Virus record (IMG/VR): IMGVR_UViG_3300050015_000702
Source: a virus
Strand: one strand, 5' to 3'
DNA: 64,000 bases
The position numbers and the translations under genes were made by a program. Below the pieces are notes generated by a model. It saw only the letters and a program-made list of their open reading frames with translations, was not told the DNA's origin and did not search any database. Below are positions 27,102 through 44,966 of this stretch, piece after piece; the stretch's first letter is position 1, and each line of letters begins with the position of its first letter.

Positions 27102-27374
27102 TTAATTGTTCATCTCTCTATTTATCCAAATCTGCATTTCGTTCCAATCAGGATTATCCCAATGATATGATTCAACATCGTTATTCCTTGCAATGTTATT
27201 TCCAAGTTCTTCATCGGAATCTTTGGGTTCCCATACAATTTCGGAAACATGTTCAAAATTATTGGAATAGTAAGTATCCTGCAATATTTTGTTGTCTAAA
27301 ATCTGTCGACCAACGCCCATTGTTCTAATAGGATCTCCGCTTCTTTCGAAATTTATTTTTTCGGATACTATCAT
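27102..27374 (-). CDS. Hypothetical protein with N-terminal FER-motif module
   Basis: MIVSEKINFERSGDPIRTMGVG. Confidence 0.65.
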   Translation of the reverse strand: MIVSEKINFERSGDPIRTMGVGRQILDNKILQDTYYSNNFEHVSEIVWEPKDSDEELGNNIARNNDVESYHWDNPDWNEMQIWINREMNN

Positions 27375-28609
27375 TTTATTCTTCTATCATTTCTTTCAAT
27401 ATCATTCACGATATTTTTATATCTGTAAATATGTTTTCCGATGAATCCTTTTACTTCACCAGAAACCCCTTCTTCCTCCCAAATTTCCTTTTTAATTTCT
27501 TCCAAATCCTCTAAAGCTTCCTTTAAAGGTTTACGAATTTTATCACACCATTTTGGATCAATTAAATTATCTCTTTTAAAATTAACTGTATAAGGGCTAA
27601 AGTCTTTCATGAATGCCCATCCAATTCTAAAAGGACCCTCCTTTTTAGTTTGAAAATTAGGATCCCCTTCTCCATCTATAGTCCAGAAACACGAAGCAAC
27701 ACCGCCCCAATGATCAGCTAATCTGTAAATAGCTTTATCTGAAATCCAGTATTGGCTTCCGCCGCGGCTCTTAAAATTAGTTCCTTTGTCAGATAAAGTG
27801 CTCCATAGATGATGTATGTTTTCAAAATGACTTGTGAGATGAATTTCTTTATAATCTGCCTGAGTTGAAATATGAAAATTATTTCGGGTAACCTCTTTTA
27901 CAACCGAACGAAAGGGAACCATTGGAACAGGATTAATTTTATTATCTATAGGATCTGTTATTTTCCTAAGTTGTTTCATAATAACTTGATCCGATGATAA
28001 AGATTTAGAAACAGGTTTTTCTTTTAAAGAAACAAAAATAGTTTCATCTAAATCTGGAACCCCATCATTTTGAATTTCTAGCCCCATCGAATTTACCAGA
28101 GGTTTATATTTAGGCCAAGTTGTAACTAATTCATGGAATCCATCAAAAAGTCTATCACTTGTGATAATATCTTGTCCAACATTCATAAATCCGGGATCTA
28201 TTAGTAAGTTTGAATTCTCAATAACTTTTAAAAAATCAATTACAAGGGGTTTAAATCTATTTTCCCCAATACCCAATTTATCTAGTGGGGTTCCCTCTCG
28301 TTCGAAATGCTGTTTTTCCGTTAAGGAAACATCTTTATGTTTAAATGCTGCTCCAAGATCTGTTTTAAGGGAAGGAACATAGTGATAATCAGGATTTTGT
28401 TCTTTGATATACTTCATTAGTTTGGATCCATATCCCAATCTTCTAAATTCAGGACGAACAAAGATATGACTTATGGAGAGTTCATCTTCAAATAAAACAT
28501 ATTGAACTAGGCCGACAATCTCATCATTAGCATAAACCCCCGCTTCACAATTAGTTTGGCCTGAGTATGAATCGACAACTTCATTTGTATAAGTAATCTT
28601 CTTATCCAT
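27371..28609 (-). CDS. GNAT acetyltransferase domain + internal FER-motif module + unknown domains
   Basis: ISHIFVRPEFRRLGYGSKLM (GNAT motif A), followed by SLTEKQHFEREGTPLDKLGIG. Confidence 0.7.
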   Translation of the reverse strand: MDKKITYTNEVVDSYSGQTNCEAGVYANDEIVGLVQYVLFEDELSISHIFVRPEFRRLGYGSKLMKYIKEQNPDYHYVPSLKTDLGAAFKHKDVSLTEKQHFEREGTPLDKLGIGENRFKPLVIDFLKVIENSNLLIDPGFMNVGQDIITSDRLFDGFHELVTTWPKYKPLVNSMGLEIQNDGVPDLDETIFVSLKEKPVSKSLSSDQVIMKQLRKITDPIDNKINPVPMVPFRSVVKEVTRNNFHISTQADYKEIHLTSHFENIHHLWSTLSDKGTNFKSRGGSQYWISDKAIYRLADHWGGVASCFWTIDGEGDPNFQTKKEGPFRIGWAFMKDFSPYTVNFKRDNLIDPKWCDKIRKPLKEALEDLEEIKKEIWEEEGVSGEVKGFIGKHIYRYKNIVNDIERNDRRIK

Positions 28610-28626
28610 TTCTTTATTTATCCCAC

Positions 28627-28652
28627 AAAAAAACCCACACTTTCGCTGTGGG
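28627..28652 (-). terminator. Intrinsic terminator ending the tmRNA coding piece
   Basis: CCCACAGC-GAAA-GTGTGGG-TTTTTTT on the minus strand. Confidence 0.8.
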
Positions 28653-28885
28653 TAAGTCTCGTGAAAAATGGTGCTTCTTAAGCTGCCATTCTCATTTCGT
28701 TAACAGTTTCGCCGTTTACTTGCGTTACTGGAATAATCGTTATCTCCCTCAATATGCAGTCAAAGCCAGGTCAGCCCCGATTTGTGCGGATCGAAAATAA
28801 GTTTGTCTAAACTCACCGCACTTAGTTTAAGATAATCGGCAATCGATTGTGGAGCTGCCGCGAATCGAACGCGGGTGTTGCATAT
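28627..28885 (-). ncRNA. ssrA: tmRNA, circularly permuted (two-piece) gene; tag (A)GETVNEMRMAA*
   Basis: Minus-strand order: acceptor piece ATATGCA-ACAC-CCGCG-TTCGATT-CGCGG-CAGCTCC-A (28885-28850); 71-nt spacer; GGGGCTGACCTGGCTTTGAC-TGCATAT starting at 28778; tag ORF 28713-28678 ending AA-TAA; terminator. Acceptor stem is 7 bp with G3-U70. Confidence 0.9.
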
Positions 28886-29644
28886 CTACTCTATAATTAG
28901 CTCTTTCGAGCACTCCCAATATCTTTTTCCTATTTTAATAATAGGACTTGTATCTTCAAAAAATAATTTTTCAATTTGATTAAAATCAATAAATTCCCTT
29001 TCATCTATTCTAATTAATCTGTATCCATTCTCGATACACCACTCTTCAAGCAATTTATCTTTGAATCGTTTTGTTTCTAATTGATGATGTATATCCTTAA
29101 AATGCCAAATACCATCATATTCAAAACAAATTTTTAAAATATCCGAATATAAATCCCTTCCTATCCCCGTTTCCTTATATCTTAAATTCCCTCCTGATTT
29201 CCAATTATATTGAGGATAATGAGCTTTAAAATATTTAACAATTTCCCTTTCTTTTGATGAAGAAAATTTTATATTTGTACTCTGTTTTTGTTGATAAGTT
29301 TCGGTATAATATATTCCATTTTTCCAGGCTTCTTTTATAGCATTGCTGCTTCGAATTTTTCCTTCTTCTGTATGAATTATTTTTGTATTAGCACAGGATT
29401 TACAACAAAATCTCCTTTTAATACCTCCTTTTCGATATTTGATGTGAATTATATTATTGCATAATTCTGCTTCACATTTAATATCCTCTTCTATATATTT
29501 TCCGAATCTTTTTTCGTTCGTTTTTAAGGCTTCTTTTGAAAGTTTTTCACCTAATTTTGAATTATCTCTATGCTGCCATCTTACATGATTTGCCTTCGCT
29601 TGAAAGGTTCCAAATTCTTCTTTACATTCTCCGCAGACATACAT
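28886..29644 (-). CDS. Homing-type endonuclease: Zn fingers + Vsr/DUF559-like PD-(D/E)XK domain
   Basis: CGEC..HVRWQH, FCCKSCA, DLYSDILKICFEYDGIWH, KDK...GYRLIRI; own late promoter at 29647-29663. Confidence 0.75.
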   Translation of the reverse strand: MYVCGECKEEFGTFQAKANHVRWQHRDNSKLGEKLSKEALKTNEKRFGKYIEEDIKCEAELCNNIIHIKYRKGGIKRRFCCKSCANTKIIHTEEGKIRSSNAIKEAWKNGIYYTETYQQKQSTNIKFSSSKEREIVKYFKAHYPQYNWKSGGNLRYKETGIGRDLYSDILKICFEYDGIWHFKDIHHQLETKRFKDKLLEEWCIENGYRLIRIDEREFIDFNQIEKLFFEDTSPIIKIGKRYWECSKELIIE

Positions 29645-29702
29645 AGTTTTATTCTATATATCCGTATGGAGCTGGTAAGTTTCGAACTCTACCGTTAAAG
29701 TT

Positions 29703-30107
29703 TTAATACTGGCTTCTTTGCAGTGGTTCAAAATACCATTCCCATTTATCTAAAGTTCCCCAAGTATGAAAATTAGAAGGTGATTTTCCATTACTCAATT
29801 GAACAATAGCTGTTCCATTTTGCAGCTCTTTTGCATGTTCTAAACTCCCCGCTCTTTCTAAATGCATTCCTATAGGATTCGACATAATAACATTATAAGC
29901 CCAGAAGTAAGTATCTGCTGGATAATGATCTCCAAGAACATAATCGGGTCCTATTTCTCCATTAATCTTTTTAACACTAAAATCTATTTTAGACTTAATT
30001 ATATCCCCAGACTTAACACTAGCCATGGTTTTTAAGCCAATATCTAGAGCTTTATAGGGTTCCTGATGTTGTTTAAATATTTTTTCGTTTACAAATTCAG
30101 CTTTCAT
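29703..30107 (-). CDS. Hypothetical protein with FER-motif variant; paralogous to both halves of 30110..30952
   Basis: MKAEFVNEKIFKQHQEPYKALDIG, then VKSGDIIK...W..YFE. Confidence 0.65.
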   Translation of the reverse strand: MKAEFVNEKIFKQHQEPYKALDIGLKTMASVKSGDIIKSKIDFSVKKINGEIGPDYVLGDHYPADTYFWAYNVIMSNPIGMHLERAGSLEHAKELQNGTAIVQLSNGKSPSNFHTWGTLDKWEWYFEPLQRSQY

Positions 30108-30109
30108 GC

Positions 30110-30952
30110 TTATGTAGTTTCATATTCTTCATCATATTCACTTGGCTGAATGATCTTAAACCATTCATTCCATGCTTCAATAGGTTTAACAGACCAACAA
30201 GTTCTTATATTTGGGAGAATTCCTTCTTTTACTTCATTTGAAATATTCCAGGCACGTCTAAATACAGAGCCGCTTTGATACAAAGTAATGGACCAATCGT
30301 CATCTATTTTTGAGGATTCTTTAACTATAAAATATCTTCCTGGATTGTCATCATCGGTCATATCTTCATTATCTGAAAAATATAATCTCTGATCTGTTGA
30401 GGAAGCTCTATAAACTCTTTTTATATTTCTTATTATATCTCCGGGTTTTAATTTCTCCCAAGTAGTAATACCGATGTCCAATTTCTTAAGTGGACTTCCA
30501 CCGCGATCAAAAGCTAATGATTCTCTCAAATTTTTAGGACTAACTACTTTAAAAAATTCCATCCATACACTAGGACTTTTTATTCCAGTTACTGTAGCAA
30601 ATATTTTTCCAAAATCGGGATTTTTTTGAATCTTTTCTGCTGTTTCTTCAATATCTTTATCCAAATTTTCCATTCCTATTAATTCAATAGACAATTTGTT
30701 ATCTTGAAGAATCGCATCTCTCTTGAGTATTCCAAAATCTCCAACTCTCCAATAATACCCAAAGCTCCTATTTTCGGGAGTATAAAAAATTAGGTCTTCT
30801 TTTTCACTTACCCAAGCTTCTTTAATACACCTAAGAACATCACCCCTTTTAAGATCATCAAAGCCACGCATACCAACATCCATTCTACGTAAAGGTTTTC
30901 CTCCACGTTCAAAATGTTGTTGTATCGCTTCTCTAATTAAAAGTGCTTTCAT
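30110..30952 (-). CDS. Hypothetical protein of two tandem FER-motif + domain units
   Basis: IREAIQQHFERGGKPLRRMDVG..LKRGDVLR and LRESLAFDRGGSPLKKLDIG..LKPGDIIR. ATG 30952 preferred over TTG 30958. Confidence 0.7.
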   Translation of the reverse strand: MKALLIREAIQQHFERGGKPLRRMDVGMRGFDDLKRGDVLRCIKEAWVSEKEDLIFYTPENRSFGYYWRVGDFGILKRDAILQDNKLSIELIGMENLDKDIEETAEKIQKNPDFGKIFATVTGIKSPSVWMEFFKVVSPKNLRESLAFDRGGSPLKKLDIGITTWEKLKPGDIIRNIKRVYRASSTDQRLYFSDNEDMTDDDNPGRYFIVKESSKIDDDWSITLYQSGSVFRRAWNISNEVKEGILPNIRTCWSVKPIEAWNEWFKIIQPSEYDEEYETT

Positions 30953-30955
30953 CCG

Positions 30956-30963
30956 CAAATATA
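30956..30963 (-). promoter_or_regulatory. Possible Bacteroidota-type -7 promoter element (TAnnTTTG)
   Basis: TATATTTG lies directly after the terminator and 3 nt before ATG 30952; no clear -33 TTTG. Confidence 0.3.
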
Positions 30964-30964
30964 C

Positions 30965-31005
30965 AAAAAATTCCTGATATAGAATATCTATTCAGGAATT
31001 TTTTT
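30965..31005. terminator. Intrinsic terminator hairpin
   Basis: AAAAAATTCCTGA...TCAGGAATTTTTTT inverted repeat. Confidence 0.75.
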
Positions 31006-31021
31006 CAAGGTATTTTTTAAT

Positions 31022-31276
31022 TTAGGCAATCGGAGGGGTTATGGTTTTTTGAGGGAATAGTTTTTCCAAACCAAATAGTTTCCAAAAAATGTAGTAAACT
31101 AGAAGACAAAATAACCAAAGACCTACGATAGTCTGAACAAATGGCTTTGCATCCAAAGCATTATAACCAATGAATACAACAAGTATATTCACAATCTGCA
31201 TCCAACTCTTTTTGAGCCAAGGTAGAGCAGTTTTTACAGCCCATGCCTTAATTTTTTCAATCAATTTTTTCCACAT
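31022..31276 (-). CDS. Small two-TM membrane protein (holin-like possible)
   Basis: 84 aa with an amphipathic N-terminus and two hydrophobic helices. Confidence 0.55.
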   Translation of the reverse strand: MWKKLIEKIKAWAVKTALPWLKKSWMQIVNILVVFIGYNALDAKPFVQTIVGLWLFCLLVYYIFWKLFGLEKLFPQKTITPPIA

Positions 31277-31395
31277 AATTTTTATTTATTTAATTTTTTC
31301 TCTGGTAATGCCAGGGTAACGATAATAGCACCTATGATCAATAATATTGGCCATATTTGCTGTGCAACTTCTCCCAACTGTTTTAAAAGTTCCAT
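31261..31395 (-). CDS. Small single-TM protein (44 aa, not in the ORF track)
   Basis: MELLKQLGEVAQQIWPILLIIGAIIVTLALPEKKLINKKLCGKN*, filling the gap between 31411 and 31276. Confidence 0.5.
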
Positions 31396-31410
31396 AGTAT
31401 TGATTTTTAA

Positions 31411-31686
31411 TTAAAGTATCTCTTGTGTAACTAATATTCCATCATCTGTAAGAGGTTCTCCGTCCCATCTATCCCCTTCTCCAATCTCTTCAATTATTTG
31501 TCCGATTAATTCAGCTTGTTCTTCGTCATCGGCTTGTATAACCATAAAATTAGAATAAGCATCAAATTTAAAATGAATTTTATTCTTTCTTAATTCGGGA
31601 ATAATAGTTTGAAGCATATCCAAACCATTGGCCATGGTATAATATCCAAAACCGTTTCCTTCTAAACTTTCTTTCACTAATTTCAT
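31411..31686 (-). CDS. Hypothetical protein downstream of portal (N-terminal MKLVKESL propeptide-like)
   Basis: 91 aa, starting 4 nt after the portal stop. Confidence 0.6.
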   Translation of the reverse strand: MKLVKESLEGNGFGYYTMANGLDMLQTIIPELRKNKIHFKFDAYSNFMVIQADDEEQAELIGQIIEEIGEGDRWDGEPLTDDGILVTQEIL

Positions 31687-31690
31687 ATTG

Positions 31691-33517
31691 TTATACTCCT
31701 AATTCTTCTTCACCCCCTGCTGCTGGTTCTTCTGCTCCGCCTTCACCACCAAGTTCTCCACCACCGCCTAAGTCTCCAAGTCCCCCACCAAGTTCTCCAC
31801 CGCCGCCTAAGCCGCCGCCACCTTCACCGCCGAAACCACCTCCGCCGCCAAGTTCTCCACCGCCACCTTCACCACCAGGCTGTTGACCTGTTGCTGCGTT
31901 GAGACGTGCATAAGCTTGAGCAAGTTTACGAACTTCTTCTTCTCTTTCTTTCTTATATTTAGCGTTGAGCTTAATATCTGCTTCTGTAAATTCCATGAAC
32001 TTCTCAACCAAAAATTTAGGGTCAAAATAGTTCTTTTCTCCTGGAGTTCCATCTGGATTAACAGTAGGTTCTTTAATTCCAGCAATACTTGTAATTGTAG
32101 CGGATCCCTTTTCTGCAAGAGATCTTTCTTTCATTTTCTTGAATAAGTTTTCTTCAATGAAATCAAGACCAACAGATCCCTGAAGTACTCTGTCTTCTTT
32201 AAATTCTGGATGTTTTAAAAGGAATTGAATCCAAAGAGGTTTAAGAAGGATTTCCTGGAAAGTAGAACGAATTCTAATAATGAAATTAGAAAATCTCATT
32301 TCCTCTCTAGCAACACCTTCACCGCCATCACCCCAACTTCCGCCATTACCGCCTTCTGAAGATTCAGCGGAATTATTAAATCGGGAACTAGGTACTTTGG
32401 TTTCGATAATGAATCTCTGCCAGAAATATTTAAGAGATTCTGTATTAGATAAGTCGTATCCTTGTGGTTGGAATCCATCGATTTCTGTCTGAGCTCCATC
32501 ACGGGTAGGAATAACGAATGTCTTGGCGAAATTGAACTGAGCGGAACCATTGTAGGTTACTTCTCCGGATTCATCCGAGATGTTTAACTCTTCCTTGTAC
32601 ATACCACGTAATTCTGATAGTCTTGTACGAGCTTTAGCATCTGATTGGGATCCAATCGGAACTAAGATTTTAACCCTCATCTGAGCGTTCCAAACGTTCC
32701 AAATAATACGTGAGTTTTCAAGTGTTCTCATCATGTTAAATGAACGAACTAATCTCTCAACATATGAAAGTCTTCCAATAAAGTTACCTCGTGCCCAGGA
32801 TATGTAAATAAGGTTAGAGTCAACTAATTCTCTTTGTTTTCTTGCATCACCACGATACTGAATCCAAACACGATATTCCTCGCCATCATTATTAATACGA
32901 ACTTCTGGTTCAAGTGATATTGGGTCAAGTTCCTTTAGAGCAATAATGTTCTTAGCATTCTCTTCGCCTTCACCATCATAAATGATTTCAAATGCGAGGA
33001 ATCCATCAATAAGGAATTTCTTTAAATAATGCCAGCCATCGTGACCCTGATTGAATTTGAAAGCAAAATAGATTTTTCTGAAGCATTCATTTAAATCTTC
33101 TACAATTTCTTTTGCTTTATCTTGTTTTAAGACAGATTTAAGGTTCTTTGTTGCTGGGTAAGCAAAATAGTTCTGATCGTCATAGATGATCGTTTCGTCT
33201 GCAATAATTTCAATAACGTTTTCTATTTCACCATTCATTGCAAACTTACGAAGGAAGTCTCTACGTGTAGGATATTCCTTATCATAGAATGCGATAAATT
33301 CTTTTTGACCATAGTCAGTGCCAGCATAGTTTCCCTGGTAGTAGAGTCCATACATGGAATCTAACTGAGCTTCAGCTATACCAACGGACTTAGACTGTTT
33401 TATAACTTTTTCGTCCCATTTCATGCCCAGGGAACTCAAATTGCGTATATTTCTCTGAAGTTGTCCGACAAGACCCATTCGTCTGCCGTCCACATTTTTC
33501 ATTGTGAATCCAGCCAT
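31691..33517 (-). CDS. Portal vertex protein (T4 gp20-like) with Gly/Glu-rich C-terminal tail
   Basis: EIENVIEIIADE, FLIDGFLAFE, KELDP, LSYVERL..FNMMRTLE.SRIIW, KVPSSR, REEMRFSNFI.R.R; late promoter at 33528-33543. Confidence 0.88.
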   Translation of the reverse strand: MAGFTMKNVDGRRMGLVGQLQRNIRNLSSLGMKWDEKVIKQSKSVGIAEAQLDSMYGLYYQGNYAGTDYGQKEFIAFYDKEYPTRRDFLRKFAMNGEIENVIEIIADETIIYDDQNYFAYPATKNLKSVLKQDKAKEIVEDLNECFRKIYFAFKFNQGHDGWHYLKKFLIDGFLAFEIIYDGEGEENAKNIIALKELDPISLEPEVRINNDGEEYRVWIQYRGDARKQRELVDSNLIYISWARGNFIGRLSYVERLVRSFNMMRTLENSRIIWNVWNAQMRVKILVPIGSQSDAKARTRLSELRGMYKEELNISDESGEVTYNGSAQFNFAKTFVIPTRDGAQTEIDGFQPQGYDLSNTESLKYFWQRFIIETKVPSSRFNNSAESSEGGNGGSWGDGGEGVAREEMRFSNFIIRIRSTFQEILLKPLWIQFLLKHPEFKEDRVLQGSVGLDFIEENLFKKMKERSLAEKGSATITSIAGIKEPTVNPDGTPGEKNYFDPKFLVEKFMEFTEADIKLNAKYKKEREEEVRKLAQAYARLNAATGQQPGGEGGGGELGGGGGFGGEGGGGLGGGGELGGGLGDLGGGGELGGEGGAEEPAAGGEEELGV

Positions 33518-33533
33518 AGTTGTTTTCTTTTAT

Positions 33534-34331
33534 TTATATATTCTCTTTACATTTATCCCCATGCCATCTATTATAATTCCCAGGATCCATCATTTTATGA
33601 CAATGGGGACATTCTTTTTTGTCATATATTTGACCCATTCTGCCTTTGCTGATATTTTTGCATGTGGTTTCGCTAGCTTTTTTGCCGACTCGAGTTTTGC
33701 TCATTTTATCTTTCATTAATGAAAGTTTTTTATCAGCTTCTTCTTTACCAAATTTTTCTTCCCATATCTCAAAAACAGTTTTTTGAAACATTGGATTTTC
33801 TTCTCCAACTCTTTCACTAGCACGTTTACTCATTTTTTCAATGGTCTCTTTAGAAAATATTCCGGTTTTCCCTTTACACCAACAATTCTGCCCAATATGA
33901 GATTTGCTTATATTTTGACAATGCTCATTTGTAAATTTCCTTCCACTTAATCCTTTACTAATGTTCGTTTTCCATTCTGCTGTTCGAGGAACTTTACTGA
34001 ATGATTCTCGAAATTTATCGATGGATGCTTTTGTCCTTCTTCCTGGTATTTCTCCATTTCCCCCATTTGGATGAATGTTATACCCAATCGGAATAAGTGT
34101 TTTATATTTTATTATATTGGGTTCTTCGAGTTTTCTAGCTTCATGTAAGGTTTCGCATTTCTGTAATATTTCCTTTTTAAAAGATTCCTTACCATATTTC
34201 TTTATGGATCTTCTAATTAAATTACCACTGCCTAAATATCCATCGTCTATATTATTGGTAGTATGAGCTCCGACATATTGTTTTCCATTGACGATATTAG
34301 TTGTTAAATAAACATAGTGAATATTTCCCAT
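33534..34331 (-). CDS. GIY-YIG homing endonuclease with NUMOD3 repeats and Zn finger
   Basis: YVYLTTNIVNGKQYVGAH, YLGSG, GYNI, CPHC..WHGDKC. Confidence 0.85.
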   Translation of the reverse strand: MGNIHYVYLTTNIVNGKQYVGAHTTNNIDDGYLGSGNLIRRSIKKYGKESFKKEILQKCETLHEARKLEEPNIIKYKTLIPIGYNIHPNGGNGEIPGRRTKASIDKFRESFSKVPRTAEWKTNISKGLSGRKFTNEHCQNISKSHIGQNCWCKGKTGIFSKETIEKMSKRASERVGEENPMFQKTVFEIWEEKFGKEEADKKLSLMKDKMSKTRVGKKASETTCKNISKGRMGQIYDKKECPHCHKMMDPGNYNRWHGDKCKENI

Positions 34332-34380: not shown

Positions 34381-35085
34381 TTAAGTTTTGTCTCCTATTG
34401 ATACGATTCCTTTTGAACCCAGGTCATAAATCTTATATAATTGAGCCTGATTCATCTTTCGGAATGCATTTTTAGGTTCATAAAATGGTATAAATTTCCA
34501 TTCTGAATATTCCACCATTCTGAATTTGGTTACTTTTGGGAAAGAATATTTTCTATAAGCGAAATTAAAATTGGCGGCATTCTTACTATTGAATAATTTG
34601 ATCATTGTCTGACCCCCGCCGCTCTTCATGTAATCTACAAATCGTTTATTTATGGCTTCCTTATTATTCTCTGTAAGATTTTCTACCTTGTCAAAAAAGT
34701 CTTTAAAAGTAAGAAAGAATGAATCCAAAAATTTAAGACGAACATCTGGAGGAAGTAAATTTAGATTGATACCGGAAAATGTTCCTCTGTCCTGATTCAT
34801 ACAAAAAGTTAAGGGAACAAAGTCTGTATATTCCTTGTTTCCTTTTTGTAATTCAATTAGAACATTTGGGCCTTGGTAAATGAAAGTATAAACAAATCCG
34901 GGAATAGGATACCCGCCATTCTTAGAACCAATAACACTTTCCTGATCCGTTGAATCGATTTCAGTGAGTTTAGCATCCCCTTTTAGATTTTGGACAATAT
35001 ATTTTTCGAATAAGATTGAGTATGCCTGGTCAGAGATTCCATTGACCCTTTGCATAATCTTATATTCATCGGCAGGAGCTAACAT
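34381..35085 (-). CDS. DNA end protector protein (T4 gp2-like)
   Basis: PGFVYTFIY, DFVPL, GINLNLLPPDVR, AYRKY; located beside gp4 and the portal. Confidence 0.65.
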   Translation of the reverse strand: MLAPADEYKIMQRVNGISDQAYSILFEKYIVQNLKGDAKLTEIDSTDQESVIGSKNGGYPIPGFVYTFIYQGPNVLIELQKGNKEYTDFVPLTFCMNQDRGTFSGINLNLLPPDVRLKFLDSFFLTFKDFFDKVENLTENNKEAINKRFVDYMKSGGGQTMIKLFNSKNAANFNFAYRKYSFPKVTKFRMVEYSEWKFIPFYEPKNAFRKMNQAQLYKIYDLGSKGIVSIGDKT

Positions 35086-35660
35086 TTTACTAAATTTTTT
35101 GTTCGATTATTATTTCCCATTCTAGATTTGCTCATATTTCGCTTAGTTTGTTCAGACATCGGAGGCCTATTTTTGGCGGCTTCCTGCATATTCTTTTTAT
35201 GCTCTTCCGAAAAATCCCCATTTCCATTATTTCTCCTTGTGTCCCAAATTGCTTTTTTACTTTCAGCGGTATGTTTGGGCTTACTCATTTTTTGTTTAGT
35301 TATTTCGGATCTTTTTATACCCAATAAACTATTTTTAATTTTTTCTTTACTTTCTTCAGAAAAACATTCAACAACTCCAACCCCTCCTTTTGGACTTAAA
35401 TTATATCCATTTGGTTTTAATGTATTATGCTCTTTAATATATTTTTCTTGAGCATCAAAGGAAGATTGTTTAGATGGAAAAAACTTTAGAATTTCCTTTT
35501 TGAAATTCTCCTTTCCGTATTTCTTTTTAGCATTATTAAAATAAGGGCGTCCACTACCAATATAATGATCATCCAAATTATTGGTTGAGTGATCTCCGAC
35601 ATATTTTTTGCCATTGATTAAATTTGTCGTCAAATAAACATAATTGAACTCTTTTTCCAT
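35079..35660 (-). CDS. GIY-YIG homing endonuclease
   Basis: YVYLTTNLINGKKYVGDH, YIGSG, PNGYNL, NUMOD3 repeats. Confidence 0.85.
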   Translation of the reverse strand: MEKEFNYVYLTTNLINGKKYVGDHSTNNLDDHYIGSGRPYFNNAKKKYGKENFKKEILKFFPSKQSSFDAQEKYIKEHNTLKPNGYNLSPKGGVGVVECFSEESKEKIKNSLLGIKRSEITKQKMSKPKHTAESKKAIWDTRRNNGNGDFSEEHKKNMQEAAKNRPPMSEQTKRNMSKSRMGNNNRTKNLVKC

Positions 35661-36062: not shown

Positions 36063-36663
36063 TTATGCCAAATTTTCTCATTTGGTCTTCGGTGAAGATA
36101 TAGAATTTGCTATTGTGACGTACTGCCCATTCATTCATGGCAGCAAACTTTGCTTCATTAATAAGATATTCCTTGACCTGGATATTATATCTTTTTATAT
36201 CTTTTAGGGGTGCATCGGGAGGAAGCATTTTAGGCTTTCCTAATTTATGGGATGGCTTAATTTCGATGAACCATTTTTCAATAACTCCATCAGCTTTCTT
36301 AACTTCAACCCAGAAGTCTACATTATAGAATTTAGTAATCCAGTTCTTTGGGTTGTTAGGATCCAATCCTAGTTTCTTATTGGCGTCAAGTTTAGAAACC
36401 CTATCATAATAAGGAACTCGAATAGGTTCGGAACTCCATCGAACTATGGAAGGAGAACAATCGCACCATTTGCAGAACGATAATTCCCATCCACTACGGT
36501 AGATGATTAATTTTGGATTGCCAATATATTTCTGCGGAGCATTTAAAGTATATTTTTCATGAAGATAACCCTGGCGAGTTGTCCCTTTCTTCAAGTTCCC
36601 TTCAGCAGTAAGTACCTCTTTTTGAGGTTTATGCCAAATCTTATACTTTTCATTATTAGCCAT
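36046..36663 (-). CDS. Head completion nuclease (T4 gp4-like)
   Basis: PQKYIG..IIYRSGWE..FCKWCD....RWSSEPI.VPY, YNVDF, IEIKP, NEAKF.A..EW, F.IFTE. Confidence 0.85.
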   Translation of the reverse strand: MANNEKYKIWHKPQKEVLTAEGNLKKGTTRQGYLHEKYTLNAPQKYIGNPKLIIYRSGWELSFCKWCDCSPSIVRWSSEPIRVPYYDRVSKLDANKKLGLDPNNPKNWITKFYNVDFWVEVKKADGVIEKWFIEIKPSHKLGKPKMLPPDAPLKDIKRYNIQVKEYLINEAKFAAMNEWAVRHNSKFYIFTEDQMRKFGIIGGRF

Positions 36664-37010
36664 TAGATTGAATATATTTTATTCTGACTAATTGAAATCT
36701 TTTTACTCTTGGGCATGTTACCATAAAGTTTACGCCATCCTTTTGCAAAGCCATTCTTTATTATCTGGGTAACATAAGCGAATGCATTTGCACTCTTTTC
36801 TGGGTTATATCCTCTCCAATATTGGAAACAGTCCATTATTGCAAACGAAATACAATCCTCTCGGTCCTCATTATAGACGTATTTAAACTTCGTTGAGAAC
36901 TTATTAGCCATTAAAATAAACATGTCCAAACATTCTTTGGTGAGTTTATCCTGTGCTTTAGATTTGATTAGTTCTTCTCTAAGATCTTTATTTTTAACGT
37001 GGATGGCCAT
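36663..37010 (-). CDS. Late-transcription sigma factor (T4 gp55-like)
   Basis: HVKNKDL, DCISFA..DC, YNPEKSANAFAYVTQIIKN.F. Confidence 0.8.
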   Translation of the reverse strand: MAIHVKNKDLREELIKSKAQDKLTKECLDMFILMANKFSTKFKYVYNEDREDCISFAIMDCFQYWRGYNPEKSANAFAYVTQIIKNGFAKGWRKLYGNMPKSKKISISQNKIYSI

Positions 37011-37973: not shown

Positions 37974-37988
37974 AAAATTTGTTTTATG

Positions 37989-38795
37989 TTAAACTGAGAG
38001 AGTTCTCACTCTGCTTCTTGGTAGTGTTTCCATTCTTGGTTCCTGATTCTCCGATCCAAAAATACATCTGCATGAATCAGCATCTCCTACGGCCTGTGAA
38101 TAATCTCCTGCATGTACAAGGCAATTACCTGTGGCTTCTTCTGTTTCTTCGTCAACTGTAACTCCAGGAACATAATCTTGCGGATTAGCAAAGTCATTAG
38201 GATTTTCAAATAACCTAATCTGTTCTTTTGGAAGAATCTGCATATCTCCTTCAACTAAAACATTTACAGTTGGAGAATCGGCAAGCATATCTGAATATTT
38301 GACGTAGCAATGAGTAGTTTTTATAGGTACAGTGTTATAGAATATTCCGCAATGAACATATTGTTCAAAAAGAAGTTTCTGAGTTTTATCATCAAACTTC
38401 ATAGGAGGTTTCATTGCACCTTTTTGAGCAAGTCCTTTAAGAACTTTTAATTGGCTGTCTTTAGCTACTTTAGTGGAATATTGAATCTGAACAATCCAAG
38501 AACCATCTGACATTTGGCCAATAACATATCCTTGCTCTTTTCCAAAAGCTACCTTGTCCCCTATTTGAGCTTCATTTAGAGGTTTTAATTCTGATTCTTT
38601 TTTTGATTCTTTCATAACCGGAAATTCTTTATTAATTAAATCTGCAACTAAATACATGAGAGTGTCCCTCTCTGAAGGATTCAACGGAGTTGTTCCGATC
38701 TCGCGATTAGCTTTGATCAGAACGTTTCCATTGTTATCACATATTTGTCCGCTTATAACTTGGACTGGAAGCTTGAGACTTTTAATTGAAGTCAT
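37989..38795 (-). CDS. Hypothetical late protein
   Basis: 268 aa, coupled by TAATG; internal PLNEA possible protease site. Confidence 0.6.
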   Translation of the reverse strand: MTSIKSLKLPVQVISGQICDNNGNVLIKANREIGTTPLNPSERDTLMYLVADLINKEFPVMKESKKESELKPLNEAQIGDKVAFGKEQGYVIGQMSDGSWIVQIQYSTKVAKDSQLKVLKGLAQKGAMKPPMKFDDKTQKLLFEQYVHCGIFYNTVPIKTTHCYVKYSDMLADSPTVNVLVEGDMQILPKEQIRLFENPNDFANPQDYVPGVTVDEETEEATGNCLVHAGDYSQAVGDADSCRCIFGSENQEPRMETLPRSRVRTLSV

Positions 38796-40840
38796 TATGC
38801 AATGGTTTTCTTTTTCTTTAGAAATACCCTACGTTTCTTAGGAGCTTCTGGTTCTAATTCTGTTTGAGCATCAGTAGCTTCATCCTTTGGTTTTTCTTCG
38901 TCTTCTTCCTCTGGTTTCTTTTCGGGTTTTTCTTCAACGTTAACATCGTCAGTTGGTTCATCAACATCGGCTTCGGTGTTAGTTTCGATCTTGTCTTCTT
39001 CACCACCTGCAAGGTCTGGAGATTCGGTACCATCACCGTTTTCTTCTTCTCCATCTTCAGTTCCAGCTTCTGCTTCTGCCTCTTTATCGGCTTCTGCTTT
39101 GTCTGCTTCTGCACCAACTTCATCTGAACCCATAGATACACTATCAGTAGAAATTGTTGGGGTATCACCTAACATTTCGGTTTTGTCATCGTCAAAAGTT
39201 ACTGCTGAAGCAGGCTCTTTTTCCATATCTTCTTTACCAACTTCTGATCCGGCTTCGCCTTCTGCACTGCCCTGACCACCATCGGCTGGAATAGGTACAG
39301 TAAATTTCTTTCCATCAACATCTACAGTGATTGTAATAGATTCGCCAAGTGGACGAACGTATTTTTCAGCAACGTTTAGATAGTCTTTGTAATCATTTCT
39401 AACTTCGGTAAGTTCTTCATCCAAAGCTTCAAGAACTTTAACAACGGTTGGGGTTGCATATTCGCCTTTGAACTGAGATATTTTAGTTTCAAGAGCTGCA
39501 ATATAGTCAGTATATTCTTTTTTAGTATCAGCTATTTCTTCAAGGATTTTTTCCTGTTCTGGAAGTAAACCTTCGAATAGACGAGAAACGTCATATCTTA
39601 GGTGTTCCATCATGATGCCCTTAGCTTGAATAGGGTTAACGTTACGATAGAAAGTACTCTTGCCATCTGTAGCATTATGGGTGGCAATGAAAATGTTGCC
39701 ACGGAGTTTAAACACATCAGCAGCGTGATTTAAATCCTCTTTTAGGAATACCCGTTTTGCAAAGTCAATTTCTGCGATTTCGTCGAAGTTCTTTTTGAAC
39801 ATTTCAACTAAACCAAGCAATTTACCTTTACCAGTCCACTGTGCTATTGATGCACTTTCAGCGAATGCTTTTGAATCCAATTCCTTTTCATTAAGGATAA
39901 CTTTATCAGCTGTGATAATAGCTTTGTCGTTTCCTTCATAAATGGTAATATTCTTACCGTTGATAATAACGTTTGGATTGTTAATAGCTTCACAAAGCTG
40001 AACGAAGTCTCTATCGAGTCTTGCAACTTCTTTTTCGCCAATACGAGCCACAATATTACCTTTCTTAACATAGAACATTCCACGAACTCCGAATACGGCT
40101 TCGTTTTCGCCTAAGTATATGATTGGAGAATATATTTTCTCAATATCGCAAGTAGCATTTGCATGTTCAAGCTGAAGTTCGGTAGCGTCTAAGGTTACCA
40201 AATTGATAATATCACGGATGAAAGGATCGTATGACCATTTCATAAGAGATTCTTTAAGGATATGTTTTGTCTGCTCGTTTTTGTTCTCAAGATAATTATT
40301 AAGAACGTCTTCGATATACTCAACAAGATAGCGGCTCTTTGTTTCTTTCATTGTCTCAACAATTTTCTTGAGATCAACATCACTTTTATAGCTGGCTACA
40401 TTGTCCTGAATATCTTTGATTGCATTTCCTATTCTTGGGAAATAGTTAAATGCTTGCATAGCAGTCAAGTAAGATTCATATATCGTTACTTCTGGTACCC
40501 CATGTTCAAGATGATCCCTATAATATAGAAGAGTTTGCTTTAGACCTTCGTTCTCATTGGCTTCTTCTCTCATAAGATTCTGAATCGATTCTCTTACTCC
40601 AAGATATTTAACAGCCCATGCTCTCTTTTGGTTAGAAAGCCATGTCTGAACTTCTGGGTCATTTATTTTAGCTAATCCTTCGAATAGGTTTTTAACCTGT
40701 ACTTTTTCAATTTCATGCTGTGCTTCTGCGGGTACAGAATTATACATAGCTGAACTTAAGCCAGATATTGCATTTTCGCAAAGGGCTACTACTGCCGCTG
40801 ATTTGGACTTAGCTTTTAATTGGTTGATTTTTTCTATCAT
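38795..40840 (-). CDS. Putative head core/scaffold-like protein with acidic C-terminus
   Basis: 681 aa, helical/coiled-coil with an E/D-rich tail; late promoter at 40869-40885. Confidence 0.5.
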   Translation of the reverse strand: MIEKINQLKAKSKSAAVVALCENAISGLSSAMYNSVPAEAQHEIEKVQVKNLFEGLAKINDPEVQTWLSNQKRAWAVKYLGVRESIQNLMREEANENEGLKQTLLYYRDHLEHGVPEVTIYESYLTAMQAFNYFPRIGNAIKDIQDNVASYKSDVDLKKIVETMKETKSRYLVEYIEDVLNNYLENKNEQTKHILKESLMKWSYDPFIRDIINLVTLDATELQLEHANATCDIEKIYSPIIYLGENEAVFGVRGMFYVKKGNIVARIGEKEVARLDRDFVQLCEAINNPNVIINGKNITIYEGNDKAIITADKVILNEKELDSKAFAESASIAQWTGKGKLLGLVEMFKKNFDEIAEIDFAKRVFLKEDLNHAADVFKLRGNIFIATHNATDGKSTFYRNVNPIQAKGIMMEHLRYDVSRLFEGLLPEQEKILEEIADTKKEYTDYIAALETKISQFKGEYATPTVVKVLEALDEELTEVRNDYKDYLNVAEKYVRPLGESITITVDVDGKKFTVPIPADGGQGSAEGEAGSEVGKEDMEKEPASAVTFDDDKTEMLGDTPTISTDSVSMGSDEVGAEADKAEADKEAEAEAGTEDGEEENGDGTESPDLAGGEEDKIETNTEADVDEPTDDVNVEEKPEKKPEEEDEEKPKDEATDAQTELEPEAPKKRRVFLKKKKTIA

Positions 40841-40919
40841 TGCGTTTAGTTATTTGATAAAAACTATGTTTTTCTTTATATATTTAACGAAATCTTAAAA
40901 TTTTTTCTATTTTTCAAGG

Positions 40920-41489
40920 CTACCAATCAGCCCAGTAATGAACATTCGGGGAACCTAATATTTCAACTCCTGCTGGTATATCTTTTTCTGTAAGACCCGA
41001 TTTATTATTACAAGCAAAATCCCCTCCAATAAATTTGGCTATGCCGTCAAAAGATTCAATATGAGGATTTAAACTGCAAGCATAATGGCTCTTAACAAAT
41101 TCAGGACCTCCTACCAAATTCTTTAAATTGTTTCGGGAACAGCCAAATTCACCATTAACTATTCTGGGGCATCCTCTTAATGAAGTCATTTGGTTTTTAT
41201 CACCGGTATTCCTTCTAACATCTCCCATAATATTGAAGTTACAGTTAGCTTCATTAAATTGAATATAATCTGGAAAATTTCCCGGCCAATCTGTAGTAAA
41301 AAATCCCTCAAGAATATCAATAGTAAGATCATCATTAATTCTAAAGAGACTAGATTTTGTAGCATTTGAAATATTGAACCAATATTCCATCAACCATTCT
41401 CGAATTTTTACTCTCATTCCAACCCCCAGGGTCTTTTTAGGGTCTCCGCCTCTTTCAAAATTTACTGCTATGGATTCTCGAACAATCAT
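40920..41489 (-). CDS. FER-motif protein with short LRR-like repeats
   Basis: MIVRESIAVNFERGGDPKKTLGVG; SLRGCPRIVNGEFGCSRN / NLVGGPEFVKSHYACSLN repeats. Confidence 0.7.
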   Translation of the reverse strand: MIVRESIAVNFERGGDPKKTLGVGMRVKIREWLMEYWFNISNATKSSLFRINDDLTIDILEGFFTTDWPGNFPDYIQFNEANCNFNIMGDVRRNTGDKNQMTSLRGCPRIVNGEFGCSRNNLKNLVGGPEFVKSHYACSLNPHIESFDGIAKFIGGDFACNNKSGLTEKDIPAGVEILGSPNVHYWADW

Positions 41490-42826
41490 TAGACAATAGT
41501 TAGATGATTTACAATTCCAAAGTTTCTTTCTGGAAAATTACTATTGGCAACGTGAATATCAATAATTTTGGATTCGATAGGTCCGCCTGGGAATACAATT
41601 CCCGCAGAGGTATGAATAGAAGGATCCAAATAGTTATTCGTAATAGTTGCCCATATACTTCCATCTCCGGTATAAGTAATTTGACCAGTTAAACGATTCT
41701 TCATTTCCAGCTGCAAATTAATAGAAGCATTTATTTGCGAATAGAAATAGCCAGGATCCAATACTTTAAAAGAAGAACTGCTTATAATATTTGTAGATAA
41801 GTCGGGAATAATCTTAATAAAAGGAGGTCTCGAAACAGCCACATTATCATTAAATTCGGGTTTTTCTCTGTTTTCCCAGATTATAGTGGGTTCTTGATAA
41901 GTAGTAAAGTCCTCAGGAATATTCCAAATATAATATTCGTGATTAGGTTGAAGTTTATCAATAGAAAAACGTTCGTTGGTATTTGTATAAAGCCAGAATA
42001 TATCTACTTTTGGAATAACATAAAGCTCTCTTGTAAAATCCCATTGAACCCAAAGCGGAATTCCCTTAGGAATAACTGCACCTTCAAGCGGAGTTGTAAT
42101 TACAATATTGCCTGGCTCCTTTGGAACTCCGCCTTTTTGAATATCATAATTTATACCTTTGATCTTTGTGGTTGCTTTCATCTCAGTTGTTTTGTCAAAA
42201 ACTGGCTGATAAGTTTCGATCTCAAGTTCAAAATTAAGTTTGATTGGGTTGTTTACTTCAAATGAATACTGAATATTCTTTTCAATAGCAAGATCTTCCG
42301 GAAATCCAACAGTACAACCAACACGCATTCCTTTGTAATAAGTATAGTAGGTAAGAGTTTTGTAGAATGTTTCTCTAATTTCCTGTTCGATTTTTAAAGC
42401 ACTTATTTGACGATCGATCCACATTTCACATGCTATTCGAACTTTAAGTGGCATTGAATACAAGAATGAAACATAACTTTCCAATTTACCATCTACTTCT
42501 TTTACATATCGTCCCTGTACATAACGGGAAGTAATACGTTGAGCATCAATGGTGGAACCTGTATAAGTTACAATGCCTCTAGGAATCATGTCGAAATTAC
42601 CATCAACTGGTCGAGGTGCAAGACAATCTCCATAGTGGGTATAGAAATCCTGCATGAAACGTTCGTCTCCAGATTGATTGTAATACCATGGAACATTTAT
42701 TTGTTCTACATCATCATTTGACCAAACTTGGTTATATTGAATATGATTAGTAAGAACGTCAAGAAGACCCGCGATCACACCACGAATTAATATGTCTTCT
42801 GAGTTATACTTCTGATACAATGCCAT
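41489..42826 (-). CDS. Tail terminator / sheath completion protein (T4 gp15-like) with C-terminal extension
   Basis: NVPWYY, MIPRGIV, MPLKVRI.CEMW....SALKIEQEIRETF, LNFELEIETY. Confidence 0.6.
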   Translation of the reverse strand: MALYQKYNSEDILIRGVIAGLLDVLTNHIQYNQVWSNDDVEQINVPWYYNQSGDERFMQDFYTHYGDCLAPRPVDGNFDMIPRGIVTYTGSTIDAQRITSRYVQGRYVKEVDGKLESYVSFLYSMPLKVRIACEMWIDRQISALKIEQEIRETFYKTLTYYTYYKGMRVGCTVGFPEDLAIEKNIQYSFEVNNPIKLNFELEIETYQPVFDKTTEMKATTKIKGINYDIQKGGVPKEPGNIVITTPLEGAVIPKGIPLWVQWDFTRELYVIPKVDIFWLYTNTNERFSIDKLQPNHEYYIWNIPEDFTTYQEPTIIWENREKPEFNDNVAVSRPPFIKIIPDLSTNIISSSSFKVLDPGYFYSQINASINLQLEMKNRLTGQITYTGDGSIWATITNNYLDPSIHTSAGIVFPGGPIESKIIDIHVANSNFPERNFGIVNHLTIV

Positions 42827-43790
42827 TTTGCAGAATATTATAATTTTTATCTATAATTATAGTATATTTATATCCATTATTTAAAACAGCTTTTTCTTTT
42901 TCTAAAATCATATTTTTATCTCGTTTTAAATAGTAAGAACTTTTTATTTCAATAATTAAATTTAGAGAAGGTATAAAAAAATCAGAAAGATAGATTCTTT
43001 CTTTACCCAAATAATTATATTTAAATGATAACCCTCTTTGAATATCTGGAAATTTATCATAATATTTTTCTAAAAAATCAAGTTCATAAGAACCCTGATA
43101 CCAGATGTTTGAATCTCTAAATGGTTTTATTTTTATTTGAGTTTTAAAGATTTTTTCTGATAATTCCTTACTTTGCATGCTATATTTAACATCATATCTT
43201 TTTAGCATTGTTTTTATAGCTTTTTCATGCACGGTATCATTTTGCAAACTGCATGGAAATCCATATCTTTCCGTATTTGTATTTCTTTTTTTATTTGATA
43301 TTTCATTTTTTTCTTCTTTGGAGAAACCCTTCCATAAATGAACCATGTCCTTTTTATGATTTACTGACCCCATATAGCTAGAAGCCCCATATCTTTCTTT
43401 ACATGTTTTTTCAACTTTAATACTATTTAAGCCATGAGCGGAATTCTTATGTCCATATTTTTTTAATCTAATAGCTTCACTTTTAGTAATTATACTTTCT
43501 CTATTGATAATTATTTCATCCCCGTATTTTTCTTTAAAGACTTCTTTAATTCTATCAAATCTGAAAATATTAGCACATTCTTTTTTACATGTATCCCTAT
43601 ATCCCCTTTGAAAACTATAAAATTCAGTTTTCCCTCCACATATTTTACAAATATCTTCCCCCTCCTTTTTTATCCATTTATCATAATAATCTTTTATGCA
43701 CAATTGATGCTTATGCAAAATATGATTGTTTAATCCTTTTAATGACGGGATTTCTTGATGGCATTCTTTGCATATAATTTTAGCTTCCAT
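42804..43790 (-). CDS. Homing-type endonuclease: Zn fingers, (K/E)RYG repeats, PD-(D/E)XK
   Basis: CKEC..H..KH, CKICG, ERYG repeats, GSYELDFL, YLSDFFIPSLNLIIEIKS; paralogue of 61759..62700. Confidence 0.75.
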   Translation of the reverse strand: MEAKIICKECHQEIPSLKGLNNHILHKHQLCIKDYYDKWIKKEGEDICKICGGKTEFYSFQRGYRDTCKKECANIFRFDRIKEVFKEKYGDEIIINRESIITKSEAIRLKKYGHKNSAHGLNSIKVEKTCKERYGASSYMGSVNHKKDMVHLWKGFSKEEKNEISNKKRNTNTERYGFPCSLQNDTVHEKAIKTMLKRYDVKYSMQSKELSEKIFKTQIKIKPFRDSNIWYQGSYELDFLEKYYDKFPDIQRGLSFKYNYLGKERIYLSDFFIPSLNLIIEIKSSYYLKRDKNMILEKEKAVLNNGYKYTIIIDKNYNILQNGIVSEV

Positions 43791-43794
43791 AAAA

Positions 43795-43822
43795 ATGAGA
43801 TATATTTATCTATATATCTCAT
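43795..43822 (-). promoter_or_regulatory. Late promoter within a perfect 11-bp hairpin 4 nt from the HEG start
   Basis: ATGAGATATAT-agataa-ATATATCTCAT-tttt-ATG. Confidence 0.7.
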
Positions 43823-43851
43823 AAAATATCTTCATTATTGTATTTTTGATT

Positions 43852-44199
43852 TTAATTTTTGGTTTCATAAAAATATAATAAAATCTCATTTTTTCCATCC
43901 CACTCTGTTATTTGAAAAATTTTGCTAAATTGAAAAAAATTTGAAATAAATTTATATAAAAATAAATTTAAATTATTATCTCTCAAAATTATCTTAAATG
44001 AATTCTCCTCAAATAAAACTTTAACAAGGGGGTCTTTTATAATTTTAAAAAGTTCTTCTCTATCATCTTCATCTCCCTCTTTTGATAATATATCAATCAA
44101 TTTCTTCTTAAATCTTTCGTAACCAATCTGAAGTTTATCAAAAGGATCTCCTTCACGAGTAAACTGATTTAATTCTTCTTTGATGAGTTTGGCCTTCAT
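43852..44199 (-). CDS. Hypothetical protein with N-terminal FER-motif module
   Basis: MKAKLIKEELNQFTREGDPFDKLQIG; late promoter at 44206-44224. Confidence 0.65.
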   Translation of the reverse strand: MKAKLIKEELNQFTREGDPFDKLQIGYERFKKKLIDILSKEGDEDDREELFKIIKDPLVKVLFEENSFKIILRDNNLNLFLYKFISNFFQFSKIFQITEWDGKNEILLYFYETKN

Positions 44200-44212
44200 G
44201 GAGACTTTTATT

Positions 44213-44581
44213 TTATATATTCCATGAGATACCCATAGTGCATTTATTCCACATCTTCATATCCCAACCCAGTTTAGTTTTGGCATAATGTTTTGTGTAA
44301 AAGTGTTTATAAAGATAAAATCCGAGAGATACCATTCCAAGACCAAAAGCACCAAAGAAAAGATATTTGGCAAGATCAAAAAGATTTGCATCAGTTGCAG
44401 CAACAATAATTACAACAACAATAGCTGCTACGATTAATAGAAATATAGCAGGACTTAATATCTTTTTGTACAGCTTGTAAAAAGTTGCATAAGATTTTGG
44501 AGGGTTAGCTATGAACCAGTCAATAGCGGCAATTTGTTCGGGGGTTAAATCAATAACTTCCCCATTAATAAATTTAGGCAT
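44213..44581 (-). CDS. Two-TM membrane protein
   Basis: 122 aa with two strong hydrophobic helices. Confidence 0.65.
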   Translation of the reverse strand: MPKFINGEVIDLTPEQIAAIDWFIANPPKSYATFYKLYKKILSPAIFLLIVAAIVVVIIVAATDANLFDLAKYLFFGAFGLGMVSLGFYLYKHFYTKHYAKTKLGWDMKMWNKCTMGISWNI

Positions 44582-44582
44582 A

Positions 44583-44966
44583 TTATAAGCTTAAAATATA
44601 AAATGTAATTTTATTTGGTTGAGTACTTTTCCAACGCAAATTTTTTGGACTATGATTATTAATTATCTGTCGAAGAGATTGAAACATAAAAAAGTTGAGA
44701 GGGTTTTCGGGTAAAGTAATTGAAACAAGAGGCGAATCCCCTATTGCATCGTTCTTTGGAAATCCTTTGAACTCAATTGTACAAGATGGATCGTTTAGAA
44801 TTTTCTTCATTTTGTCCCAATTTTCCCAATATTCGCTACTCTTATTATTAGGTGAATTGGGCATCAAATCATAAAATCGATTCTTGACCCCAATGCCTAA
44901 TGACTTCAAAGGTTCTTGACTCCTTTCGAAATTATGCAATTTTTCTGAGACCAAGTAAGCTTTCAT
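44583..44966 (-). CDS. Hypothetical protein with N-terminal FER-motif module
   Basis: Start reassigned to ATG 44966: MKAYLVSEKLHNFERSQEPLKSLGIG. Confidence 0.65.
   Translation of the reverse strand: MKAYLVSEKLHNFERSQEPLKSLGIGVKNRFYDLMPNSPNNKSSEYWENWDKMKKILNDPSCTIEFKGFPKNDAIGDSPLVSITLPENPLNFFMFQSLRQIINNHSPKNLRWKSTQPNKITFYILSL

Follow-up and report, generated by a model that had tools for sequence, protein, structure and literature searches.

Eight copies of one peptide motif on seven phage genes

The window analysed here is the whole 64,000-nucleotide stretch of DNA from IMG/VR virus record IMGVR_UViG_3300050015_000702; its G+C content is about 34% and its DNA is present in peat metagenomes. 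Because the window encodes a portal protein of the T4 gp20 type, the element is identified as an uncultured T4-like phage. Between 27.1 and 45.0 kb, seven minus-strand genes (A to G) carry exactly eight copies of the motif [VLI]-x-E-[S/K]-x-x-F-E-R-G-x-D-P-x-x-x-[LM]-x-[IV]-G, which we call the tag; the sequence that follows a tag is called its cargo, and the two together a module. A preliminary description of the DNA had listed eight copies on seven genes and read them as an address label for the phage head. All eight were located in minus-strand open reading frames (ORFs), using a hidden Markov model (HMM) built from the copies and a check of the ORFs:

27102..27374, minus strand: gene A, 90 amino acids (aa), N-terminal tag (tag DNA 27309-27368)
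27371..28609, minus strand: gene B, 412 aa, GNAT domain at residues 1-95 (E 3e-8), tag at residues 96-115 (DNA 28265-28324), then 297 aa of cargo
29703..30107, minus strand: gene C, 134 aa, degenerate N-terminal tag FKQHQEP...DIG (DNA 30036-30092; E 3e-12)
30110..30952, minus strand: gene D, 280 aa, two tagged modules with tags at residues 6-27 (DNA 30872-30937) and 141-160 (DNA 30470-30529)
40920..41489, minus strand: gene E, 189 aa, N-terminal tag (DNA 41418-41483) on a solenoid resembling leucine-rich repeats (LRR-like)
43852..44199, minus strand: gene F, 115 aa, N-terminal tag (DNA 44122-44184), with the box ATATATAAAATAAAA directly upstream
44583..44966, minus strand: gene G, 127 aa, N-terminal tag (DNA 44889-44951), in a variable region flanked by a GIY-YIG gene and a membrane-protein gene

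When the HMM was run against all six-frame ORFs of the window, the copies scored between E 4e-14 and 3e-12 and the next ORF reached only E 0.3, which fixes the copy number at eight. A degenerate DNA pattern for F-E-R-G-x-x-P matched the window twice, against a chance expectation of 0.04. Six of the seven proteins open with a short leader, 5-8 residues long, whose end is [VLI]-x-E. The start codons of D and G were assigned from the family prefix MKAxLVxE, as ATG 30952 rather than TTG 30958 for D and ATG 44966 rather than GTG 45020 for G.

The copies share only 56% identity at the DNA level, and where residues are identical, the codons agree in 80 of 196 pairs. Such scrambling of codons at identical residues indicates that it is the peptide, not the DNA, that is conserved under selection. 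The cargo had been described as mostly unrelated between proteins, and comparison of the sequences confirms this: similarity is confined to the two modules of D (E 1e-4, 22% identity), with all other pairs at E >0.02.

The tag defines a large family restricted to phages

The preliminary description had also suggested that a motif HMM be used to survey cargo. A profile of the eight window copies, searched against 1.84 billion representative proteins at E <=0.001, uncovered a large family with varied cargo: at least 865 protein clusters carry the tag, and a single protein can hold as many as 11 copies (P0050, 1511 aa). From these, 194 proteins containing 684 tag instances were retrieved; the consensus was derived from 645 anchored instances, and the other figures from all 194 proteins. 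The consensus reads [VLI]-x-E-S-[ILV]-N-F-E-R-G-x-D-P-K-x-[AS]-[ML]-G-I-G, with near-invariant Phe (98%), Arg (94%), Pro (100%) and final Gly (99%); Glu occupies position -10 in 91% of instances and Val, Leu or Ile position -12 in 74%. The tag lies within 12 residues of the start in 163 of the 194 proteins, usually behind the leader MIVRE or MKAxLVxE, and 27 of the 194 carry a single tag. Successive copies are spaced by a median of 120 residues, and the modules have a median size of 103 aa (5-95% range, 76-230).

At the DNA level, contigs were searched with degenerate patterns. One that demanded Asn before Phe found nothing in IMG/VR; with a pattern that covers about one fifth of the copies, 76 stretches were found in IMG/VR and more than 120 in metagenome contigs of JGI, ENA and GenBank, which have groundwater and activated sludge among their names. 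Within 596 Gb of prokaryote DNA (185,579 species genomes) there was one true match, a genuine tagged LRR-like gene on a 2.9-kb contig (MWBV01000048.1) of a metagenome-assembled genome named 'Candidatus Diapherotrites archaeon', and this contig is most likely a wrongly binned phage fragment. With one prokaryote match against more than 190 metagenome and IMG/VR stretches, the family is restricted to phages. Whole IMG/VR records hold 18-35 tags in 66-137 kb at a CheckV completeness of 16-34%, from which we estimate a genome size of about 400 kb and on the order of 100 tags per genome.

The tag was absent from the huge phages Lak-A2, LR756500 and LR756501 by both HMM and DNA pattern (zero matches, with the same pattern matching the window twice), and a tblastn search of GenBank phages with two polyproteins or a 27-aa tag found no match, a single tag being near the detection limit of that search. 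No model in Pfam, NCBIfam or PHROGs covers the tag; among 78 tag-rich proteins no family matches more than six, and no match falls on the tag itself. Searching the literature for the peptide strings yielded nothing relevant, and a protein atlas no useful neighbour. Taken together, these searches show that the tag family is large, phage-restricted and undescribed.

A flexible peptide joined to varied cargo

AlphaFold2 models were obtained for D and E. D is predicted to form two beta-rich SH3-like domains, with a predicted local distance difference test (pLDDT) score of 65-90 over the cargo and below 50 at residues 1-28 and 143-161. E is predicted as an LRR-like solenoid with block-mean pLDDT mostly 80-96, falling to 55-59 at residues 81-100; across its tag region the block means are 44 and 53 over residues 1-20, with values below 50 at residues 1-11. 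All three modelled tags thus lie below about 55. The preliminary description had named a motif integral to a single shared fold as a finding that would speak against its reading, and the models place the tag in neither cargo fold. As modelled, the tag is a flexible, portable peptide and not part of a fold. A fold search with both models against the PDB returned nothing at E <=0.001, only weak SH3-like, LRR or beta-solenoid rows.

Once stripped of tags, the cargo falls into about 200 sequence clusters at E 1e-5, of which 126 are singletons and the large ones have 75, 68 and 50 members. Pfam matches among 148 tagged proteins comprise ankyrin repeats (14 proteins), a small N-terminal GNAT domain (2) and a few single matches, with no peptidase, methylase or nuclease arrays. 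LRR-like paralogues of E in the huge phage LR756501 lack the tag. The proposal of a portable label on varied cargo is borne out by the conservation of the tag across these clusters, and by the exchange of modules at the tag described below.

Modules are exchanged at the tag

Comparison with relatives showed that modules are gained, lost and shuffled precisely at the tag. The second module of D recurs as the opening module of proteins P0010-P0014, and B corresponds to P0008 minus two internal tagged modules, with both ends alike. Residues 1-34 of A are 85% identical to module 1 of the seven-module protein P0001, and the remainder is 32% identical to module 7, so that the sequence of gene A resembles a chimera left by deletion within a seven-module relative. 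At a syntenic locus (L036) a single chain of 831 aa stands in place of A and B; fused and unfused forms therefore interchange at one locus, which fits products that become separated. Across the family, modules occur as single genes, tandem genes or fused chains of up to 11 units. The earlier suggestion that internal copies mark polyproteins is upheld in that relatives reach 11 modules in one chain.

The positions of tagged genes vary as well. An orthologue of E occupies the same place in relative L081, and the spot that holds F and G carries other tagged genes in L063 and no tagged genes in L081. Tagged genes had been described as scattered among head and tail genes, a claim that is weakened by the relatives, which place them in variable regions with no specific head or tail neighbours; there they adjoin genes for homing endonucleases, endolysin, RNA ligase, gp32 and the baseplate.

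The presumed cut site and the head protease

In general, S77 proteases act inside the prohead, and in the T4 model gp21 is active there. T4 gp21 cleaves after L/I-x-E and removes propeptides of 7-65 residues (PMC9026906). A 10-residue capsid targeting sequence of IPIII suffices for packaging (PMC9026906); the T4 internal proteins are a diverse set with only a conserved targeting sequence as their common feature (PMC3012670), and IPI-III have sizes of 8-20 kDa. The [VLI]-x-E flank of the tag fits the specificity of gp21, as the preliminary description had noted, and the window encodes a member of the same protease family as well as the portal:

31691..33517, minus strand: T4 gp20-type portal gene (PF07230, E 2e-53), with a late-promoter-like box upstream
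62649..63560, minus strand: prohead protease homologue (Peptidase_S77, T4 gp21 family; phrog_207 E 6e-19; PF03420 34.3 bits against a cut-off of 27)

A phmmer search of PDB sequences with the window protease did not reach T4 gp21. In the T4 record, the gp23 propeptide ends FLTE/AEIGG and gp24 starts MAKINELLRE/STT. A tag-rich IMG/VR contig (G001) encodes a Peptidase_S77 domain (55.5 bits) together with a gp23-type capsid protein whose propeptide ends HALNE/AEMGG, so that L-N-E/AEMGG in this relative matches L-T-E/AEIGG in T4. Since this contig holds both the protease and a capsid propeptide ending in L-N-E, L-x-E specificity has probably been kept in the tag-bearing phages. On the same contig, at about 60.7-65.1 kb (L204/L202), an open frame of 849 aa begins with the S77 domain and continues as a scaffold-like stretch (coiled and rich in Lys and Glu), and the capsid gene follows directly.

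The residues flanking the presumed cut differ between internal and N-terminal tags. At internal junctions P1 is Glu in 94%, P3 is Leu, Ile, Val, Met or Thr in 90% and P1' is Ser in 75%, whereas at N-terminal tags P1 is Glu in 84% and P1' is relaxed (Asn 33%, Ser 20%). The stricter P1 and P1' positions of internal tags suggest an extra constraint where two modules would have to be parted, and the S77 protease of the window is a candidate enzyme for these [VLI]-x-E junctions. A complex prediction for the S77 domain with the junction peptide of D scored 0.00 and gave no answer. Acid-labile or autocatalytic cleavage at Asp-Pro, as at GDPH sites, was considered and rejected, because conservation of the Asp reaches only 72% and a following His is lacking.

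Sequences upstream of the tagged genes

A box of the form ATATATA[AG]A[ATG]AAA lies 10-20 nucleotides upstream of the starts of several window genes and resembles an extended T4 late promoter (TATAAATA). The genes it precedes are 31691-33517, 33534-34331, 26407-27066, 28886-29644, 22205-22900, 43852-44199, 45103-45870, 38795-40840, 50366-51169 and 53641-54207. As ATATATAAAWAAAA it stands upstream of the portal gene and several others, and among the tagged genes of the window only F has it. The start of E overlaps the stop of a conserved upstream gene of 445 aa, to which E is coupled. A scan for sigma-70 sites found no more of them than in shuffled sequence.

Other genes of the source phage

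The window portal is 39% identical to the portals of Lak megaphages and of the 462-kb record LR756500. Its last ~70 codons encode a long Gly-rich, acidic low-complexity tail (GGEGGGGELGGGGGFGGEGGGG...EEELGV) that T4 gp20 lacks. Also encoded are a gp2-like DNA end protector, a gp4-like head-closure protein, SbcCD-like nuclease subunits, a DnaB-like helicase and several GIY-YIG homing endonucleases, together with a gp55-like late sigma factor (36663-37010; 90% identical in L081). One small gene shares the leader of the tagged proteins:

31411..31686, minus strand: 91-aa acidic protein starting MKLVKE/S (same prefix, no FERG core), directly after the portal gene

The T4 record has the gene order 20-67-68-21, and by its position this small protein may correspond to the T4 core proteins of genes 67 and 68. 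A 188-aa protein encoded at 53641-54207, with the late-promoter-like box upstream, starts MKLVYESLDEFNFNLNED... (MKLVYE/S) and also has no FERG core; its N-terminus is possibly a decayed tag. The gene at 38795-40840, between E and a gene of 268 aa, encodes a 681-aa protein whose C-terminal third is very acidic and of low complexity. It is 62% identical in L081 and gave no family match, and may be a scaffold or core protein.

The S77 protease gene lies in a region (61759-63560) that also contains a divergent DUF7487/YacG-like zinc-finger gene and that is missing at this position from the syntenic relative L055. The last ~30 residues of the window protease, which are Cys-rich, differ from those of its relative P0196, which is 99% identical. 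Homing-endonuclease-like genes (GIY-YIG, zinc-finger or HNH-like) are found amid core late genes at 33534-34331, 35079-35660, 45103-45870, 3903-4538 and 22205-22900, with further ones at 42804-43790 and 28886-29644. As such genes sit at other positions in L081 and L063, this phage group has unusually active mobile endonucleases beside the tagged-gene loci.

A model for head loading and its alternatives

We infer a system resembling the T4 internal proteins, in which cargo would be loaded into the head and cut there, the tag retained and polyproteins packaged; we give this reading a probability of about 0.45. The interpretation offered in the preliminary description is to that extent partly supported. 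According to this model, the tag would serve as an address-and-processing label of a clade of uncultured T4-like huge phages, with each cargo module of about 100 aa preceded by [VLI]-x-E / S-x-N-F-E-R-G-x-D-P-K-x-x-M-G-I-G. Tagged proteins would enter the core of the assembling prohead, where the gp21-type protease would cut after Glu, either removing the leader of 5-8 residues (MIVRE or MKAxLVxE) or separating the beads of a chain. The small modules would then be ejected into the next host with the DNA, to act as binder or inhibitor effectors like T4 IPI-III. The conserved core (Phe, Arg, Pro and final Gly) lies past the presumed cut and, unlike the T4 targeting sequence, would be retained on the product, where it could dock to a partner in the scaffold or capsid or act as a protease exosite.

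Several observations weigh against this model. The best-conserved residues follow the presumed cut and are not explained by a protease site alone, and [VLI]-x-E may simply belong to an amphipathic helix formed by the tag. With a median pI of 5.8, most modules are acidic to neutral, whereas the T4 internal proteins are basic, and the very high copy number is much for proteins carried in a head. The variable regions over which the tagged genes are scattered adjoin early-type functions. Across loci, a smaller share of tagged genes (13/238) than of other genes (72/693) is preceded by the box ATATATA[AG]A, a comparison that is weak because the box was derived from this window alone and many tagged genes are internal to arrays; B, D and G are each preceded by a hairpin, terminator-like only in B, and lack the box. 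Finally, the idea that the cargo consists of effectors like anti-defence factors is weakened, as recognisable cargo is mostly binding repeats (ankyrin, LRR-like and SH3-like).

Some of these same observations could be accommodated if the tag were a short motif that docks to a shared hub distinct from the capsid, whether a host machine or a phage protein, with the modules as target binders and cutting optional. In one version an adaptor library would bring host proteins to one effector, for example a protease; in another, all modules would be seated on one host complex. Such a hub would account for conservation that peaks in F-E-R-G-x-D-P...I-G and not in the presumed cut site, for a tag that is disordered alone in the models, as docking motifs are, for recognisable cargo made almost only of protein-binding repeats (ankyrin in 14/148) with no enzyme but a small GNAT, and for the very high copy number in scattered, partly non-late contexts. 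However, no such partner is known, the strict h-x-E-S flank (h, hydrophobic) at internal junctions and the T4-like N-terminal leader would be superfluous, and ten tags in a chain would crowd one hub; we consider it unlikely. In a bolder form, to which we likewise give only a small chance, the tag would be a tether plugging about 100 fast-evolving binder modules (ankyrin, LRR-like, SH3-like and orphans) into one hub of the infected cell, or, as a variant, all would be head-loaded and the virion would inject around a hundred effectors. The hub in question might be a protease, a ribosome-associated factor or a phage-built compartment, and the arrangement would be a phage counterpart of F-box or PRANC systems, which pair an adaptor with substrate receptors.

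Other explanations account for part of the pattern. The motif could be an N-terminal cap or linker inherited within a single multigene family that evolves fast, kept by descent and recombination between paralogues and with no role in targeting or cleavage. Tandem arrays, the duplication within D and the apparent deletion chimera A would then reflect birth-and-death evolution, and the largest cargo clusters (75, 68 and 50 members) would be expected; we nevertheless judge this quite improbable, since the folds are clearly unrelated (ankyrin, LRR-like solenoid, SH3-like and GNAT-linked helical, in about 200 sequence clusters), the tag does not pack against the cargo in the models, and a tag that stays near invariant while cargo diverges and synonymous sites are scrambled implies strong selection on the peptide. 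Improbable too is a motif that is a polyprotein-processing junction only, cut in the cytoplasm by S77 outside the head or by another protease, with no capsid targeting. This would suit the bead-on-a-string layout with its ~120-aa spacing, the interchangeable fused and split forms and the stronger constraint on P1 and P1' at internal copies. Yet the tag is near the start in 163/194 proteins and 27/194 have a single tag, with nothing to separate; twenty conserved residues far exceed what known head proteases of phages require (L/I-x-E), and gp21 acts inside the prohead in the T4 model. That the conserved stretch is a translated DNA or RNA signal, such as a recombination box or regulatory element, would fit the exchange of modules at the motif, but is largely excluded by the low DNA identity and divergent codon use of the copies (56%; 80/196 pairs) and by a motif that is always in one reading frame inside ORFs.

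Comparison with known systems

Under the preferred model of head loading, the closest counterparts are IPI, IPII, IPIII and Alt of T4, which are likewise diverse small cargo with only a short N-terminal signal in common. In both cases the signal ends in hydrophobic-x-Glu, the gp21 cut site; the tagged phages have T4-type portal, protease and, in a relative, capsid genes; cargo loci are hypervariable among related phages; and the narrow size of the modules is comparable to that of IPI-III. The differences are also clear. The tagged leader before Glu has only 5-8 residues, and while the T4 targeting sequence precedes the cut and is removed, here 17 conserved residues follow the presumed cut and would be retained. 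Tagged modules are chained in up to 11 units, and genomes would carry on the order of 100 tags against three or four internal proteins in T4. The tagged proteins show no homology to the T4 targeting sequence or internal proteins, only the GNAT domain matching any PHROG or Pfam family.

Cargo-loading peptides of encapsulins and the scaffold-to-coat peptides of HK97-fold shells are also short, flexible and conserved, dock unrelated cargo inside a shell and are retained. In contrast to the tag, they are C-terminal, unrelated in sequence and single-copy, with no adjoining protease site. Polyvalent proteins, reportedly described by Iyer, Aravind and colleagues in 2017, are said to be multi-domain chains delivered with the DNA and processed into effectors. 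They resemble the tagged proteins as chains thought to part into separate effectors, but have recognisable enzymatic anti-defence domains and their own peptidases, whereas the tagged chains show almost only ankyrin and a small GNAT; we know of no repeated-junction motif described for them. In the giant phages SPN3US and phiKZ, substrates of the prohead protease are cut at a short motif ending in Glu and, to our knowledge, share no common 20-residue tag. Reports on these phages describe dozens of head proteins, many of them trimmed after Glu by the prohead protease (PMC5694885, PMC7411985, PMC10052503).

Implications for huge T4-like phages

If head loading is correct, huge T4-like phages of soils, sediments and sludge would carry a swappable kit of small injected proteins. 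By a rough estimate from the tag-rich contig G001 (about 35 tags in 133 kb), this kit would take up around one tenth of the contig, far more than the set of three or four internal proteins in T4. The tag would then provide a sequence handle for listing effectors in metagenomes, where at least 865 clusters have almost no assigned functions, and its 20 residues would be a candidate peptide for directing foreign proteins into phage heads. Should the tag instead dock to a hub in the cell, it would represent a new kind of phage adaptor system.

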